A DNA stretch of 64,000 nucleotides from Camelus dromedarius (Eukaryota): NCBI RefSeq assembly GCF_036321535.1, contig NC_087436.1, positions 26,724,001 through 26,788,000 on the forward strand, read 5' to 3'. The position numbers and the translations under genes were made by a program. This document shows, piece by piece, positions 33,893 through 63,257 of this stretch; position 1 is the stretch's first letter, and each line of letters opens with the position of its first letter. The notes beneath the pieces are model-generated. The model had not been told where the DNA came from and searched no databases. It was given only the letters and a program-made list of their open reading frames with translations.

Positions 33893-34367
33893 ATTTTTTT
33901 TTTAATTGAAGTATAGTCGGTTTACAATGTTGTGTTAATTTCTGGTGTACAGCATAGTGATTCAGTTATACATATACATATATATGTTTCTTTTCATATT
34001 CTTTTTCATTATCGCCTTTCATTATAAGATACTGAATATAGTCCCCTGTGCTATACAGTAGGACCTTGTTTATCTATTTTATATATAGTAGTTAGTATCT
34101 GTAAATCCCAAACTCCCAGTTTATTCCTCCCCCTGCCTGTTTTCCCCCTGGTAACCATAAGTTTATCTTCTATGTCTGCGAGTCTGTTTCTGTTTTGTAA
34201 ATAAGTTCACTTACGACATCATTTTTAGATTCTGCATATGAGTGATATCATATGGTATTTTTCTTTCTCTTTCTGGCTTACTTCACTTACAATGACCATC
34301 TCCAGGTCCATCCATGTTGGTGCATATGGCATTATTTTATTCTTTTTTTTAATGGCTGAGTAGTATT
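33893..34367 (-). mobile_element. Young L1 3' end (cetartiodactyl-type 3' UTR)
   Basis: Poly-T followed by 'aattgaagtatagtcggtttacaatgttgtg...ctatacagtagg...tccatccatgttg...atggctgagtagtatt'. Confidence 0.9.
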
Positions 34368-41832: not shown

Positions 41833-42755
41833 CTTTTTTTCTGAGTTGAGTGATTTTATTTATTTATTTATTTATATTGAAGTATAGTCAGTTTACATGT
41901 TGTATCAATTTCTGGTGTACAGCATAATGTTTCAGTCATACATATACATATATTCCTTTTAAAATTCTTTTTCATTATAGGTTACTGTAGGATATTGAAT
42001 ATAGTTGCCTGTGCTATACAGCAGAAACTTTTGTTTATCTATTTTATATATAGTAGTTAGTATCTGCAAATCTTGAACTCCTATTTTATCTCTTTCTACC
42101 CCTCTTCCCCCTGGTTAACTATGAGTTTGTTTTCTATGTCTGTGAGTCTGTTTCTGTTTTGTAAATAAGTTCATTTGTATCATTTTTTTAGATTCCACAT
42201 GTAAGTGGTGCCATATGGTATTTTTCTTTCTCTTTCTAGCTTACTTCACTTAGAATGATGATCTCCAAGTCCATCCATGTTGCGGCAAATGGCATTATTT
42301 TATTCTTTAAGGCTGAGTAGTATTTCATTGTATAAATATACCACAGCTTCTTTATCCAATCATCTGTCAATGAACATTTAGGTTGTTTCCATGTCTTGGC
42401 TATTGTAAATATTGCTGCTATGAACATTGGGGTGCATTATCTTTTTGAATTAGAGTTCCCTCTGGATATATGCTCAGGAGTGAGATTGCTGAATCATATG
42501 ATAAGTCTATTTTTAGTTTTTTGAGGAATCTTTATACTGTTTTCCATAATGACTACACCAAACATGCATTTCTGCCAACAATGTAGAAGGGTTCTCTTTT
42601 CTCCATACCCTGTCCAGCATTCATTGTTTGCGGACTTTTGAATGATACCCATTCTGACTTGTATGAGGTGATACCTCATTGTAGTTTTGATTTGCATTTC
42701 TCTGATAATTAGCAATACTGAACATTTTTTCTGTGCCTATTGGGCCATTTGTATA
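41833..42755 (-). mobile_element. Young 5'-truncated L1 (ORF2 C-terminus plus 3' UTR) with a 14-bp TSD
   Basis: ORFs [17 protein letters not shown]... and MFIAAIFTIAKTWKQPKC...EIIILSEVS. TSD tcacatctactatt at 41819-41832 and 42756-42769. Confidence 0.95.
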
Positions 42756-47705: not shown

Positions 47706-50700
47706 TTTTAAGCCTTTAAAACCATTTGAAACTACTTCTGCCTCTTTCCATTAAACAACCTCAGCAAGAATAAGCAAGAGATTAATTTAATAAGCGTACA
47801 TGGTGAGCAGAAAACCCATTCACTTGACATTCTGAATTGACATGAGCAATGGAAATTTAAGGTACACAAATATAAAAATAATTATTATACCATTTACATT
47901 TATTGTTCCCAGCCATTTAGAAAGTCAGCAAGACATATCATAGCAATATTGTAAAAAGGAAACTAAATATGGATTAAATATGGAATTGGTTTATTAAAGT
48001 TATATAAAATTTAATACTTTTTAGCAATTGACAAAGAATTGCTAATATGCCAGTTTAATTATTTTAGCTAGTTAGCAAAAAGTGATGGATAACAGATGTG
48101 TTCAGAAAACAAAACTGGGGAAACACCTGGTCTTTTTCCTCTGATTCTGAATAAACTGAAATATGCCTTCAGCCTCATTGGGCTGCTTTCTTTGACATCT
48201 TTCAAGAAACATGTCTTTAGAAATGTAACTAAATTGTTTCCCCTGAGTCAGTTATGAGTGATTTCTGCCATGGGGGGCATTCTCTCCACTATATGAAAAA
48301 GTGGACTCTAAAAGGAAGGTCATTTACATGAGAGAAAGAATACAAATCAAAAAACGTATGCTGCTCCTAGAGTCATCACATTGGTAAACTTAACTTCAGG
48401 TGAAATTAAACCACCTTAGAAACATAAATTTCTTTCATACCTTAAGGCATCGATTGCCTAAATTAAATGTCATGGATGAGCCCAAATAAACAAACATATT
48501 TCTCTTTCTGTAGGTAGCTAGTGGACTTCCCTACATTATTTTAGTAATGTTTAGGAGAAAACTTACTGATTCCAATTCCCTCTCTTCTTTTAAAGATCTC
48601 TATTAATTACAGTGTATAGCAGTGAGTTGGGAGCTATGTCTGTAGGGGTGGGACTTCTCACCTTCTTACAATTGCAGTTATTTAAAAAATAGGTTTGAAA
48701 TACCTTGCTTTATTATTATTTTATTTTTAGTAAAAAATATCTGAAAATGTTCAGCTTCTCACTTCAATCCTGTTTTAAAAAATGCATTATAAACATAATA
48801 AAATATATGCATTTTTCTTCAACCTAGAAAAGCTTTTTGTCATAACAAGAAAATGAGGATTATATTAGGTACAACAATAAAAGGATGAACTAAGGAGCAC
48901 TCTTGGTTTTAGTTATGTAATCTCATTTTAAGTAATGGTGCTAGAATCAGAACAAAAAGTATAAGCAGGAAAACCTGTGGTATTTACTAATGACTAAGCT
49001 TCAGTCAACCTCTCAAATCATCTTGATATTAAATTGTGAACCTCTCTGATAGATGCTCCTGACCCAGCTCTGACAAAGATCCTAAAATAAAGTACAGCAG
49101 TACCACATTACTTCCTCATTGTAACCCAGTATCCTTGGCATAAACAGTCTTTATATCAAATAGAATACCAGGGCAACAAATTATGTTTATAAGGACAGAA
49201 ACAGAAAAGAGGCAAAGGTGTTTGGGGAATATGTTTCAGAGTATATTTATATGGTCCCAAACTATACTTTTATTCTTATTTTTTCTTCTAAACAGAGACA
49301 CCTAAAGATAGAAGTGTAAGGAAGTGTATTTGATACCAGTACAATATACTGTGATTGATATGTGCCCAGGTGCCTAACAGTGAACCAATGTGAGAAAGAC
49401 AATACTGCATATTTCAGGACATTGATAAGACTGGAGAATGTAGCACAACTGACCGGTGGCCTAGAACTATTAACAGTATCCTCTTGGTGACTCTAGCATT
49501 ATTAAGAGCTGGTGATAATGCGGGCACCTTCAAAAGTCATTATACCTTGTATATCAGTGTGTCCAGTAAAGTTGGCAAGGCATCATGTGATTACACATAA
49601 GAAAAGAAACAATTGTTCATGAACTCACAAGAGATCAACCAAAGACTAGTATGTAATATGGTATAGACTTGGGGAGGACCAAATGGAGTAACTTGTGCAA
49701 AAGTTCCACAGAAATTGCATTAATCTTTAAAATATTATTTGAAATATTTCTTATCATTTTAACATATACATATATAGTATGTGAATTAATGAGTATTAAT
49801 TAATATCTAGGACTTTGCTTTTAAAAAACTAATGAACTTGACAAATCCAAAAATAGAAGTGTCTTTAAAAGTCAATAATGTACATAATGAATTAGATCCT
49901 TCCTTATTCTCTTTCCTTTTCTCTTTCTTCCTTTATTTAATAAACCTTTATTGAGTATTTGTTCAGAGCTAGGCACTGGGTATAAAATCCCAAATAAGCA
50001 TGACTGATGTCATTGGGGAGATCACAGTTTAGTAAAGGAGCTGCAATAAAGTGTACCATAACTGCTATAGAAATCAAATTGCCACAGGAATACTTTTATG
50101 ACCCAGTTACAAACACAAAGTTCCTGCAGAGAACAACTAGTCTTTAAAATTTTTCTCATAATAATTTGGCTACGTTTCTTTCATAAAATATAACATTAAT
50201 CAGCAACATGTAACTATTGACCAAAGGGAATTATAAATATATCACTCAAAGATCTGGGCTAAAATTGGCTGGATACTTAGAGCAATAGGAATAATGAAGG
50301 CATGTGGGAAAGCTGACAATCAGGAGTATTTATGAGAATACTGGGTATTATTGTAAATATCTGGATAGGCAGTTTCCTTTTATGGAGGGAATGTAGTTTT
50401 ATATTGAAATCAAGAATCTTATGCTTTAATGAGATTTGGTTATACAAGATATGTGACTGAATAAATTCATACTATTTATTTATAAAAATCACTTGGTTCT
50501 TTTTTTCTGAGGTAAATTTTTAAGGGCTAATATAATTACAGAGATAGAAAAATATGTGAAATCTATGGATATTTACTCCCATGTTGTCTTTGATTGTGTT
50601 GCTCATTAAGGTACAATTTTTTCTTATTATTAAGATATGAAAAGTGCACCTTAAAATCTGAACAGTATATTACTTGTGAGTAATCTGTCAAATGGCATGG

Positions 50701-50987
50701 CATGAGACTATGCTGATAATATTGACTAATATTAGGCCTGGGAATTACAGGTTATCTTTATACATGGTTTATGTACATTACTTTGGATATTTTTAAGGTT
50801 GATGGACATAATTCCATTAAACATTCTGGTTAAAATTTTAACTATCTCAATTGAGATTTAAGATTTTAAGATTTATTATATATCTATAGTAATAGATTGT
50901 CATTTTGCCACAGAGACAGAGACACACAGATCCATGGAACAGAATAGAGAACCCAGAAATAGACCCACACAAATATGCTCAACCTAC

Positions 50988-51300
50988 TTTTTTAATGGAG
51001 TTAATTTTTTAGAGCAGTTTTAGGTTCACAGCAAAACTGGGTGCAAAGTACAGAAAGTTTCCATATACCATCTGACTGCATACATGCACAGTCTCCCTGA
51101 TTCTCAGCATCTCCCAGGAGAGTAGTACTTTTGTTACAATCAATGAATCTACCTTGACACATTATTATCAATCCATGCTGATAGTTTACATTAGGGTTCA
51201 CTTTTGATGATGCATATTCTATGGGTTTTGATGAATGTATAATGACACATATTCATTATTTTAGTGTTATACACAATAGTTTCACTACCCTAAAAATCTT
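50988..51300 (-). mobile_element. L1MC/MD-type 3' UTR end nested in the opposite orientation
   Basis: 'ttttagagcagttttaggttcacagcaaaactg...tacattagggttcact...ctatgggttttga'. Confidence 0.8.
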
Positions 51301-51962
51301 CTTGTGATCCATCTAACTTATTTTTGCCAAAAATGCAAAAGTAATTCAACTCAAGAAGAAGAGCCTTTTAAATAAATGGTACTGGAGCAATTGATATCCA
51401 CACACAAATAAAAGAAATTTGACTTGAACTTCACACCAAAAAAAAAAAAATTAATTAAAATGAATTACAGAATTAAATGTAAGATAAAAACTTTAAAACT
51501 TTCACAAGAAAATAAAGGAGAAAATCTTTGAGAACTAAGGCTTGGAGAACAGTTCTTAGATTTGATACCAAAAGCAAGAGCCTTAAGAAAAAAATCAATA
51601 CATTGGACTTTATTAAAAACAAAACAAAACACAAGTTTGTTCTGCAAAATAACCTGTTAAGAGAGGCTACAGACAGAGAGAAAACATATATATAAAACAC
51701 ATATCTGACAAGGGACTCATATTTTGAATATATGAAGAACTTTCTCAGAATTCCCAAGTAAAAATCAAACAAACAAAAAATCCAAGTCAAAAAATGGGCA
51801 AAAACATGAAAAGACATTTCACTGAGGAGGATATGTAGATGGCAAATAAGCACATGAAAAAATCCTTCACATCACTATCCATTCAGGAAATGCAAGTCAA
51901 AACCACAGGAAGATATCCTATATAGCTATTAGAAGAGATTACACAAACAGAAAAAACAGTAG

Positions 51963-53042
51963 TGGGAAACCATGAACAGGGGGGGACAACCTATGGGAGT
52001 GGGAGAGAATTTTTGCAAGCGACGTCACCCACAGGAGATTAGTTTCCAGGATATGCGGACAGCTCATACAGCTCAATGTCAAGGAAGGGGACAGCCTGGT
52101 CAAGGAATGTGCGGAGGACCTAGGTGGATATTTCTCCAGGGAGGACATGCAGATGACCAACAGGCATGTGAGGGGTGCTCAACATTGCTAATTATTGGAA
52201 AGCTTCAAATCAAAACTACAATGAGGTATCACCTCACACCTGTCAGGAGGGCAATCATCAAAATGCTTGCAAGTAGTGAATACTGGAGAGGGTGTGAAGA
52301 GGGGAAAACCCTCCTACATTGCTGGTGGGAATGTGGATTGGTGCAGCCACTGTGGAGAGCAGTATAGAGGTTCCTTGGAGAACTAGAAATGGAGTTGTCA
52401 TATGATCCAGCAATCCCACTCCTGGGCATGTATCTTGATAAAACTCTAATCTAAGGGGATATATGCACCCAGTGTTCATGGCAGTGGTGTTTGCAATGGC
52501 CAAGACATGAAGCAACCTGGGTGTCCATCGACAGATGAATGGATGAAGAAGATGTGGTGTGTAAATGCAATGGAACATTGCTCAGCCCTGAAAAAGGATG
52601 GAATAATGCCATTTGTGGCAACACAGATGGACCTAGAGATTATGATGCTAAATGAAATGGATCAGACAAAGACAAGTATCATATGATGTCACTTACATGT
52701 GGAATATACAAAAGTGATAGAAATGAACTTGTTTGCAAAACAGAAATAGACTCACAGACATAGAAGCAAACTTATGGTTGCCAAAGGGGAAAGGGGGGTG
52801 TGGGGAGGTGGAATAATTTGGAATTTGGAATTAACAGATACACACTCCCACATGTAAAGTGGATAGACAACAGGGATCTACTGTGTAGCACAGGGAACTG
52901 TGTTCAGTACCTTGTGGTAACCTGTGGTGGAGGAAAACCTGAGAAGGAATACATACATGTGTGCACATATGTGCACTTTGCTGTACAACTGAAACACTGT
53001 AAGTCAACTATACTTCAATTTTAAAAAATGGGGAGAAAAAAA
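51963..53042 (+). mobile_element. 5'-truncated young-family L1 (ORF2 C-terminus, 3' UTR, A-tail) with dense A-to-G hypermutation
   Basis: Collinear with the L1s at 41833-42755, 33893-34367 and 62742-63257 but with A replaced by G throughout. Probable TSD aaaaaacagtag (51951-51962) / aaagaacagtgg (53040-53051). Confidence 0.92.
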
Positions 53043-55129
53043 GAACAGTGGCAATACTAAATACTGGCGAGAATGTGGAGAAACTGGATCTCTCAGTGCT
53101 GGGCATGTGCAATGATACAGATATTCTGGAAAATATTGTGTAATTTCTTTAAAAAAGTAAAACATGTACAACATGGCGTGGCCATCACTTTGGTGGGGGG
53201 GCATCTATTCTAGAAAAATGAAGTCATGTCTGCACAAAAACTTGTAAATAATTGTTCATATAAGTTTTATTTGTAATAGCCCCAAAATGGAAGCAATCAA
53301 AATGTCCTACTATAGGCAAACTTAAACAAACTGGTACGTTCATCCCATCAGAAACTACTTAGCAGTAATGAAGGCTGAAGTATTGATACACATAACAACT
53401 TGAATGGATGAGTACAAAAAACCAATCACAAAATTTCAAATGCTGTATGATTCCATCCTTGTAACATTTTTCAAATGATAAAATTATAGAGATGGAGAAC
53501 AAATCAGTCATCGCCAGAATTTAGGGATAGTGGGGTAAGAGGGCAGAGGTGATCATGATGTGTAGCATGAGAGAGATCTTTGTGAGGATGAAATAGTACT
53601 GCATCTTGATTGCAGTGGTGATAACATGAATATACCCATTTGATAAAATGACTGGAACTATTCATACACATTGTACCAATGCCAACTTCCTGGTTTAGAT
53701 ATTGCACTACACAGCGATGTAACCATTGGAAGAAACTGAGTGAAGAGTACATGGGGTCTCTGAAACTTCCTATATATCTATAATTATTTTAAAACAAACA
53801 AACAAAATTTAAAATTTAAAAGTACTTAATTTTAATATTTTATTTAAACCAATGTCCAAAATATTATTTCCCTGTATAATCAAAATAATAAGTATGAATG
53901 AAGAAAACTATTTCTCACATTATTTTTAAGTCTATTTTTTATCTACTCTGTTCCATTAATCCATGTGTGGATCCTCTCACTAATACCACACTATCTTGAT
54001 TATTGTAAATTTATTGTATGTCTTAGATCAGGTAGTGGTAGGTTTTTCAACTACTGGTGGACCTATTAATTCTGCAATCAGAAAACTTCAAAGCACTCAA
54101 GGAGATTTATTATATCTACACAATTGTACTCTGTACCAAAGACTTCAAGTTCACTTTGTTTTCTATTTTCTATCTCTGATTTCATCTAGCCTAATTGTCC
54201 AAAATAGCTCATTACAAGTTCTGTTATGAGACTAAATGACACATTTACATATTACAATAGTGAACTGCAAAAAAGTTGATAAAATTATAACATGAAGATA
54301 TGCACCAAATTTTAAAACAAACTATTTCTGATGATCAAACTTGTAAGCAAAGATTAATGTGAAAAAAAGGAAAGTTAAAGGAAACTCCAAAGCTATATTA
54401 TCTTCCCTCTTGTGAGTTACATTTAAAGAAATGTGGGCAATGTGGCCATATGTACCCGGGAAAACCACTGTGATACTGCTCAGTAGAAACTGAAATTTAG
54501 TACCATATATGTAAATCTTGAATTCTATCCAAGAGAGTGTAATCACTAAAGTCCCAAAAGACTTCAATTAGACCTATAATATACTCCCAAGAAGAGAATT
54601 AAAATAGATTTTCAACTTCTTTTGAATTTAATTTTACAAAATACATCAAATAGAAGTTACGAGTAAATTGATCTGACATAAAAATTTTACGTGAGTACAA
54701 AAATAATAGTAAGAAATGATATTTTGTTTTCTTTACTGGCTTTCTCCCTTAATTTTTCAACTTCCAATCTCTGGAGACCTGGGTTAGTGATGGAATAAGA
54801 ATGCTCAGCACATAGGTATGGGAATCAATAATTATATAATTAGAACTGATTTATATCAACTATTATATAACAGCATTGTTAAAATTATAGTACCCTTTAA
54901 ATATGTTTGCCAACTTCTTTGACATTCTTTCTTTCAAAGAAGTAGCAAACTGTAGGCTCAGTAATTCCAACATGGTATACCACATCTCTGAGTAAAAACA
55001 AACAAATATGATACTGAGCCAACTGATCTTGGAATGTTAAACTTTTGGGTATCAAAGAAACTCCATATGATGTTTTGAAGAATATTTAAATACTTATTCT
55101 ATAATCTTATTACTTCATTTATTTATAGA

Positions 55130-62741: not shown

Positions 62742-63257
62742 AGTTTATTTATTTTTTTTAATTTTTTAAATTGAAGTATAGATTGTTTACAACATTTCAA
62801 GTGTACAGCAGTGATTGTTATATATATATTTATTTATATATATATATAATCTTTTTCAGATTCTTCTCCATTATAGTTTATTACAAGATATTGAATATAA
62901 TTCCCTACACTATACATTAGGTCCTTGTTGTTTTATATATAGTCGTGCGTAATCCCAAATTCCAAATTCATCTCCCCTACCCCTTTTCTCTTTGGTAACC
63001 ATAAGTTTGTTTTTTGTGGCAAGTCTATTTCTGTTTTGTAAATAAGTTCATTTGTATCATTTTTTTTTAGATTCCACATATAAGTGATATCATATATTTC
63101 TCTTTTTCTGTCTGACTTACTTCACTTAGTATGGTAATATCTAGGTCCATCCATGCTGCTGCAAATGGCATTATTCCATTCTTTTTATGGTTGAGTAGTA
63201 TTCCATTGTTTGTATATACCACATCTTCTTTATCCATCCATCTGCTGATAGACATTA
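62742..63257 (-). mobile_element. Young L1 3' end
   Basis: Poly-T followed by 'ttgaagtatag'. ORF MDKEDVVY.../IMPFAAAWMDLDITILSEVSQTEKEKYMISLICGI is the ORF2 C-terminus. Confidence 0.92.

Follow-up and report, generated by a model that had tools for sequence, protein, structure and literature searches.

Characterization of the locus

The window analyzed, a stretch of 64,000 nt of Camelus dromedarius DNA, contains an interval in which the base composition departs from that of its surroundings. GC content and GC skew climb across exactly positions 51963-53042, and the G content of the + strand reaches 27.2% in this interval, compared to 14.8% and 17.5% in the two flanks and 17.0% in the whole window. 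As presented in Table 1, the interval corresponds to an insert that is collinear with the 3' end of an L1 family and that interrupts an older L1. Three further copies of the same family are located in the window, with 70-73% identity to the insert. All three are oriented opposite to the hypermutated copy, and none of them has a skewed spectrum of its own when compared with the insert. A search of the window against Rfam returned no family and Tandem Repeats Finder, applied to 50000-55000, returned no array.

Table 1. Coordinates of the insertion, of the interrupted host element and of the related L1 copies, as positions in the window.
Feature	Position	Strand	Basis
Left part of the older host L1, interrupted by the insertion	51560-51948	+	69-82% identity to old L1 copies in other parts of the genome
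Left copy of the target-site duplication, AGAAAAAACAGTAGTGG	51949-51965	+	Local alignment of the two junctions; alignment to L033
5'-truncated L1 body with A>G hypermutation, 3' ~1.06 kb of the element	51966-53022	+	Collinear with 43 paralogues, 69-78% identity
A-rich tail with a run of G's, AAAAAATGGGG	53023-53033	+	Read directly; runs on into the A-run of the right duplication
Right copy of the target-site duplication, AGAAAAAAAGAACAGTGG	53034-53051	+	Junction alignment; same stretch of L033
Right part of the older host L1	53052-53440	+	Same paralogues, directly after the left-flank match
L1 3' end of the same family	41866-42724	-	
L1 3' end of the same family	62762-63254	-	
L1 3' end of the same family	33896-34347	-	

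We analyzed the two junctions of the insert with the host element. The matches of the left and right flanks lie 3 nt apart in paralogue L033 and 5 nt apart in paralogue L042; the host element is thus unbroken at this position. The two flank ends can both be placed on a single stretch of L033, and the target-site duplication is an imperfect direct repeat of 17-18 nt that begins with an A-run. At the 5' junction, an alignment with 12 longer L1 copies showed that the homology to L1 begins inside the element, the longer copies running on upstream. Since the motif ACAG is common to the target and to the L1 at this junction, the position of the 5' boundary is uncertain by about 10 nt. At the other end, the native 3' end of the family and its tail were recovered at 53014-53033.

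The tails of the paralogues at the corresponding place are short A-runs. The tail of the insert contains a run of G's at 53029-53032, which may or may not be edited A's of the tail. If they were edited, the tail itself would have been in a duplex, one possible partner being the U-run in antisense RNA transcribed across a genomic L1 copy.

Taken together, all the marks of target-primed reverse transcription (TPRT) are present, namely a target-site duplication, an A-rich tail, the native 3' end, a 5' truncation and an A-rich target. The insert is a standard 5'-truncated L1 copy made by this process, and the TPRT integration proposed in a preliminary description of this DNA is confirmed by the duplication, the tail, the truncation and the A-rich target. 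The limits given there (51963-53042) were close to those established here, but the body itself spans 51966-53022 and is followed by the tail, up to 53033, and then by the duplication at 53034-53051.

Substitution spectrum of the insert

Paralogues were searched for in the 2.3-Gb genome assembly (171 contigs). A first control set consisted of 29 paralogues from the same genome, kept from the best 40 of 19,997 first-look candidates. The ancestral state was defined as the majority in columns covered by 10 or more copies with an agreement of 60% or more, and only homologous parts entered the main counts. Each of the 29 controls was scored likewise against the others. Against this majority, we observed A>G changes at 108 of the 432 ancestral A's of the insert (25.0%), compared to 4.2% ± 1.4% in the 29 controls (maximum 7.2%). 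This excess amounts to approximately 15 control standard deviations, far beyond chance. By contrast, T>C (15/232, 6.5%), G>A (16/176, 9.1%; control mean 8.8%), C>T (11/168), A>T (7 changes) and A>C (4 changes) were within the range of the controls, and the remaining transversions were no higher than in the controls. The odds ratio of A>G versus T>C was 4.4 (p = 1e-9).

Because similarity to the G-rich query had itself guided the choice of the first set, a possible source of bias, we used a second set of 14 other paralogues, picked solely by similarity to positions 51985-52170. With this set, A>G changes were found at 106 of 432 ancestral A's, compared to 4.7% ± 1.5% in the controls (maximum 7.6%), and at 77 of 350 A's in the 870 nt that had no role in the picking. 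A total of 105 A>G sites were common to both analyses. Pairwise comparison with the three copies of the window gave 104, 61 and 52 A>G, 24, 14 and 25 G>A, and 34, 19 and 13 T>C differences, respectively. These results are in agreement with the preliminary description, which had reported a massive strand-specific A>G change in a copy collinear with its relatives in the window, their A's being turned into G's. It had also called for a tally of the substitutions on the L1 sense strand, and this tally places A>G (25%) far above both T>C and the AT>GC transversions, which argues against GC-biased gene conversion.

When A>G changes are set aside, the divergence of the insert is 7.0%, within the 5.5-12.5% range of the family. 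Given this ordinary value, the copy is as old as its relatives and carries about 85-90 extra A>G changes. We did not observe an excess of G>A in the GG/GA context of APOBEC3, the 16 changes at 176 G's showing no context bias.

Among the 15-17 T>C differences, 4-5 clump at 52938-52997, where the 3' UTR is of low complexity, rich in TG/TA and aligned with indels. The clump corresponds to an earlier caveat about T>C differences in the 3' UTR; it is present but minor, as the T>C total is at background.

Two other copies were considered as candidates for editing and rejected. Extending truncated copies (L024, L011, L029 and others) to the full length of the query created false A>G changes in the first 180 columns, and L024, with 53 apparent A>G changes as a possible second edited copy, retained 23 once the non-homologous flank was removed. 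The control L025 (G000:C2:16666603-16670533) had the top G>A count of the control set, with 28 changes at approximately 176 G's. As an APOBEC-type candidate it was discarded, since its changes showed neither a GG/GA context bias nor an involvement of CpG.

Confinement of the changes to the insert

We compared the insert with the host element on both sides. Pairwise A>G and G>A counts were 126 and 97 in the left host-L1 flank and 73 and 50 in the right flank, i.e. ratios of 1.3 and 1.5, compared to 2974 and 685 in the insert, a ratio of 4.3. The flanking host L1 is thus not G-shifted, as had been stated before. Within the insert, the A>G changes start within about 10-15 nt of the 5' junction and the last robustly called site is at 53003. 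Apparent unedited gaps at 52207-52245 and 52737-52765 were not significant (permutation p = 0.59). The changed sites are mildly clustered (runs z = -2.26) and the whole insert is covered.

Neighbour context of the changed adenines

The counts of context and of sharing between copies were taken from the first alignment (116 A>G sites), whose majority states are little affected by the non-homologous flank. The fraction of A's that were changed depended strongly on the 5' neighbour, with 0.45 after T, 0.33 after A, 0.07 after C and 0.09 after G (chi-square p = 1.5e-10). In other words, 100 of the 267 A's preceded by T or A were changed (approximately 37%) versus 16 of the 170 preceded by C or G, corresponding to an odds ratio of 7.1 for a weak versus a strong 5' base (p = 2e-12). 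The same 5' test applied to the controls gave p > 0.05 in 24 of the 29 copies, and the smallest value (p = 0.004) came from a misaligned copy. A 5' G was present at just 6 of 112 changed sites. At the level of triplets, TAG was the most changed (6/9) and AAG was among the top, while every GAN and CAN triplet was changed at a fraction of 0.13 or less. On the 3' side, G was the neighbour with the highest fraction (0.34 versus 0.21-0.28), which is a trend (chi-square p = 0.43).

UAG is the best triplet of ADAR, and a change at around a quarter of the A's is the level expected of promiscuous ADAR1 editing of a long duplex. In the analysis of upstream bases by Zaranek et al. (2010, PMC2873906), two genuine editing sets have 7.85% and 5.8% G upstream of the site, versus 24-30% otherwise. 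Likewise, hyper-editing sites are reported to be poor in G on the upstream side and enriched in it on the downstream side (Porath et al., 2014, PMC4365171). Overall, the changed A's of the insert carry the neighbour signature of ADAR.

Probable RNA editing and alternative origins of the changes

We consider the insert to be a DNA fossil of an L1 sense RNA that was hyper-edited by ADAR and then integrated by target-primed reverse transcription, with a probability of roughly 0.8. An ADAR-edited and retrotransposed L1 RNA was the interpretation put forward in the preliminary description, and our analysis supports it; an A>G class close to the other AT>GC changes, G's shared by many copies and G's missing from the raw reads, here judged from k-mers, which had been named as contrary outcomes, were not what we found.

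Error-prone reverse transcription is the alternative that survives best, and we regard it as unlikely. In this scenario, the L1 reverse transcriptase would have placed dC repeatedly opposite template A while making the first strand, for example in the presence of a high dCTP/low dTTP pool, with no RNA editing involved. Changes of this origin would likewise be limited to the insert and specific to one strand, as observed, and reverse transcriptases are known to hypermutate under biased dNTP pools, for retroviruses in vitro. However, a biased pool does not predict an ADAR-like neighbour rule, in which 5' G and 5' C are each depleted about 5-fold and TAG is the top triplet. In addition, a misincorporation of 25% at one base, with the other errors not raised, would be extreme.

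A process acting on the DNA after integration has a still smaller chance of being correct, whether GC-biased gene conversion, a local hotspot, transcription asymmetry or repair by polymerase eta at WA sites. Polymerase eta has its hotspot at WA, which fits the context of the changed A's, and A>G slightly exceeds T>C on one strand of transcribed mammalian DNA. Nevertheless, the skew ends at the boundaries of the insertion while the flanks are symmetric, and these sharp boundaries already largely refute a DNA-level origin. GC-biased gene conversion is further contradicted by T>C, A>C, T>G and C>G, which are all at background. Polymerase eta produces A>T and A>C alongside A>G, with many transversions at A, whereas the 7 A>T and 4 A>C changes of the insert are at the level of the controls. 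The ordinary divergence of the insert outside A>G also speaks against such a process.

An action of ADAR on the RNA:DNA hybrid of the integration intermediate, with deamination of deoxyadenosine in the DNA strand, appears highly improbable. In work by Zheng, Lorenzo and Beal from 2017, ADARs reportedly edited the DNA strand of DNA/RNA hybrids. The DNA strand of the hybrid is here the antisense cDNA, so that a deamination there would be read as T>C in the sense orientation of the L1, a class that is at background (15/232). The strand observed already contradicts this reading, which would require a hybrid with the sense DNA strand over exactly the insert.

Uniqueness and reality of the copy

We investigated whether the G's of the insert are shared with other copies. 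Among the 116 sites, G was found in none of the 29 copies at 28 sites and in at most 4 of the 29 at 112 sites; the G's are thus not shared by many copies, the possibility against which the preliminary description had cautioned. With the whole insert as query, the top non-self match had 78% identity (best 40 of 19,997 candidates scored). The most G-rich 186 nt, used as bait, gave nothing above 75% identity among the best 40 of 948 candidates scored, a search of weak power. No parent copy of the insert was found among the best 40 of 19,997 and the best 40 of 948 candidates.

The insert and the paralogues L002, L004 and L018 are without a 9-nt segment near the 3' end (52990-53000) that the other paralogues carry. 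This deletion looks like a sub-lineage marker of the L1 family.

Inheritance of the G's from a master copy, in a G-rich L1 subfamily or a duplicated segment, would agree with the membership in a sub-lineage that the shared deletion indicates. L002, L004 and L018, however, have ordinary A>G counts (25, 14 and 13, respectively). Because these copies share the deletion and yet are ordinary in A>G, we conclude that one molecule was hypermutated, and a G-rich subfamily, with private G's at nearly all sites and the best of the 40 scored candidates of each search at no more than 78% identity, is most improbable.

An assembly or sequencing artefact had also been raised earlier. Contigs of 20 runs, from 11 studies and under two organism labels, contain 86-92% of the 31-mers sampled from 51700-53300; this result represents k-mer presence and not a read pile-up, and one of the runs may be the source of the assembly itself. 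Since the insert constitutes two thirds of this interval, most of its words must be present in independent samples. With the support for the G's lying at the level of k-mers rather than of single bases, an artefact retains a very slight probability, and at this level (20 runs, 11 studies) the G's do not behave as one.

Proposed mechanism

The reading of the insert as a copy of ADAR-edited L1 RNA implies the following sequence of events. A polyadenylated L1 sense RNA would have been base-paired, with few interruptions, over a long stretch that took in at least its 3' 1.06 kb. The putative partner could be an inverted L1 carried by the same transcript, or else antisense RNA transcribed across an L1 copy. 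About a quarter of the adenosines, and approximately 37% of those preceded by U or A, would have been deaminated to inosine by an ADAR enzyme. This edited and polyadenylated transcript would then have undergone target-primed reverse transcription at the A-rich site within the older L1. During this step, the reverse transcriptase of ORF2p would have read inosine as G and placed C opposite to it, giving a new 5'-truncated copy with G where the family has A. The event would have occurred in the germline or the early embryo, and the copy would now be widespread.

How an RNA edited at a quarter of its A's was mobilized, despite the cis-preference of L1, is a puzzle. If editing took place before translation, working proteins could not have been made from this RNA, in conflict with cis-preference. 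A non-coding edited RNA would therefore point to an editing step after assembly of the ribonucleoprotein, or to a mobilization of the RNA in trans.

Several points weigh against the ADAR reading. The insert is a single case, the enrichment of G on the 3' side is at the level of a trend, and a 5' A/T preference is also known as the hotspot of polymerase eta. Moreover, in the reporter experiments described in cell-culture work, no editing of L1 RNA by ADAR1 or ADAR2 was seen (PMC5224506, PMC8677026).

Significance of the insert

The insert is a single, old and non-functional copy. Its novelty would lie in editing stored by reverse transcription, here for ADAR and on a germline-fixed non-LTR element; the same principle is known for retroviruses. 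Genomic fossils of deaminases have so far been those of APOBEC (G>A), and the insert would represent their ADAR counterpart. As a clean genomic example, it would provide a proof of principle that a hyper-edited L1 RNA is able to complete germline integration. It also offers a template for a genome-wide screen, in the form of a sense-strand A>G cluster with depletion of 5' G and C, bounded by target-site duplications.

We suggest, tentatively and with more doubt than confidence, that the insert could be the first recognized member of a class, that of germline-fixed non-LTR insertions templated by ADAR hyper-edited RNA. If this class were real, ADAR editing would be a genuine, mutagenic and editing-dependent arm of L1 control in vivo, and inosine-rich L1 RNA would evade retention and cleavage at a frequency sufficient for its use by ORF2p. 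RNA editing would then, at times, introduce A>G changes by the dozen into the germline in a single event. A screen for sense-strand A>G clusters in L1, SINE and processed pseudogenes should, in that case, yield many more examples.

Comparison with known systems

A close genomic parallel is that of the G>A fossils left by APOBEC3 in retroelements, which were reportedly described by Carmi et al. in 2011. G>A DNA editing by APOBEC3 in genomic retroelements has been documented (Zaranek et al., 2010, PMC2873906; Knisbacher and Levanon, 2015, PMC4866542). As proposed for the insert, a deaminase acts on a replication intermediate of a retroelement, leaving a dense strand-specific cluster of a single transition in one genomic copy, which is detected by comparison with its paralogues. 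In contrast, the changes of the insert are A>G and not G>A, their context is ADAR-like, and the substrate would be the RNA before reverse transcription instead of the minus-strand cDNA. In PMC4866542, the word ADAR is absent and the sole passage on A-to-G deals with the filtering of alignments by G-to-A direction; in PMC2873906, A>G clusters are handled as RNA editing seen in cDNA traces. No genomic L1 copy with A>G hypermutation of the ADAR type was found to be reported in the literature searched, a body from which subscription journals are mostly absent and which therefore does not prove that such a report is lacking. A 2016 review describes the roles of editing in how Alu subfamilies evolved and in the suppression of retrotransposition by mutation as having "not yet been determined" (PMC4982230).

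Ultra-edited cellular RNAs are said to have been described by Carmi et al. in PLoS Genet in 2011. Hyper- and ultra-edited cellular RNAs resemble the insert in their density of A>G, in the depletion of G upstream and in their origin from repeats able to pair with an inverted copy. In the hyper-edited RNAs as presented by Porath et al. (2014, PMC4365171), however, the signature is found in RNA only and the genome is unchanged, whereas in the insert it is found in DNA.

The restriction of L1 by ADAR1 and ADAR2 studied by Orecchini et al. similarly brings ADARs together with L1 RNA and its ribonucleoprotein. According to the reporter data in these papers, no editing was observed across a length exceeding 2.5 kb and across upwards of 50% of the reporter L1 RNA, and an editing-independent mechanism was proposed (PMC5224506, PMC8677026). 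The insert, in contrast, would indicate a heavy in vivo editing of an L1 RNA that later integrated.

Finally, ADAR-type proviruses of exogenous retroviruses would share with the insert the reverse transcription of an edited genomic RNA, with the edits stored as G in the integrated DNA. Cases of A>G hypermutation are known from the 1990s for avian virus and spleen necrosis virus. Among the proviruses described for BLV, three carry at least 7 A>G changes in about 70 bp (PMC8025556), and A>G cases in HTLV-2/STLV-3 were reported by Ko et al. (2012, as cited in PMC8025556). These are somatic LTR proviruses, whereas the insert combines about 105 changes in 1.06 kb with a non-LTR L1 element, target-primed reverse transcription and fixation in the germline.
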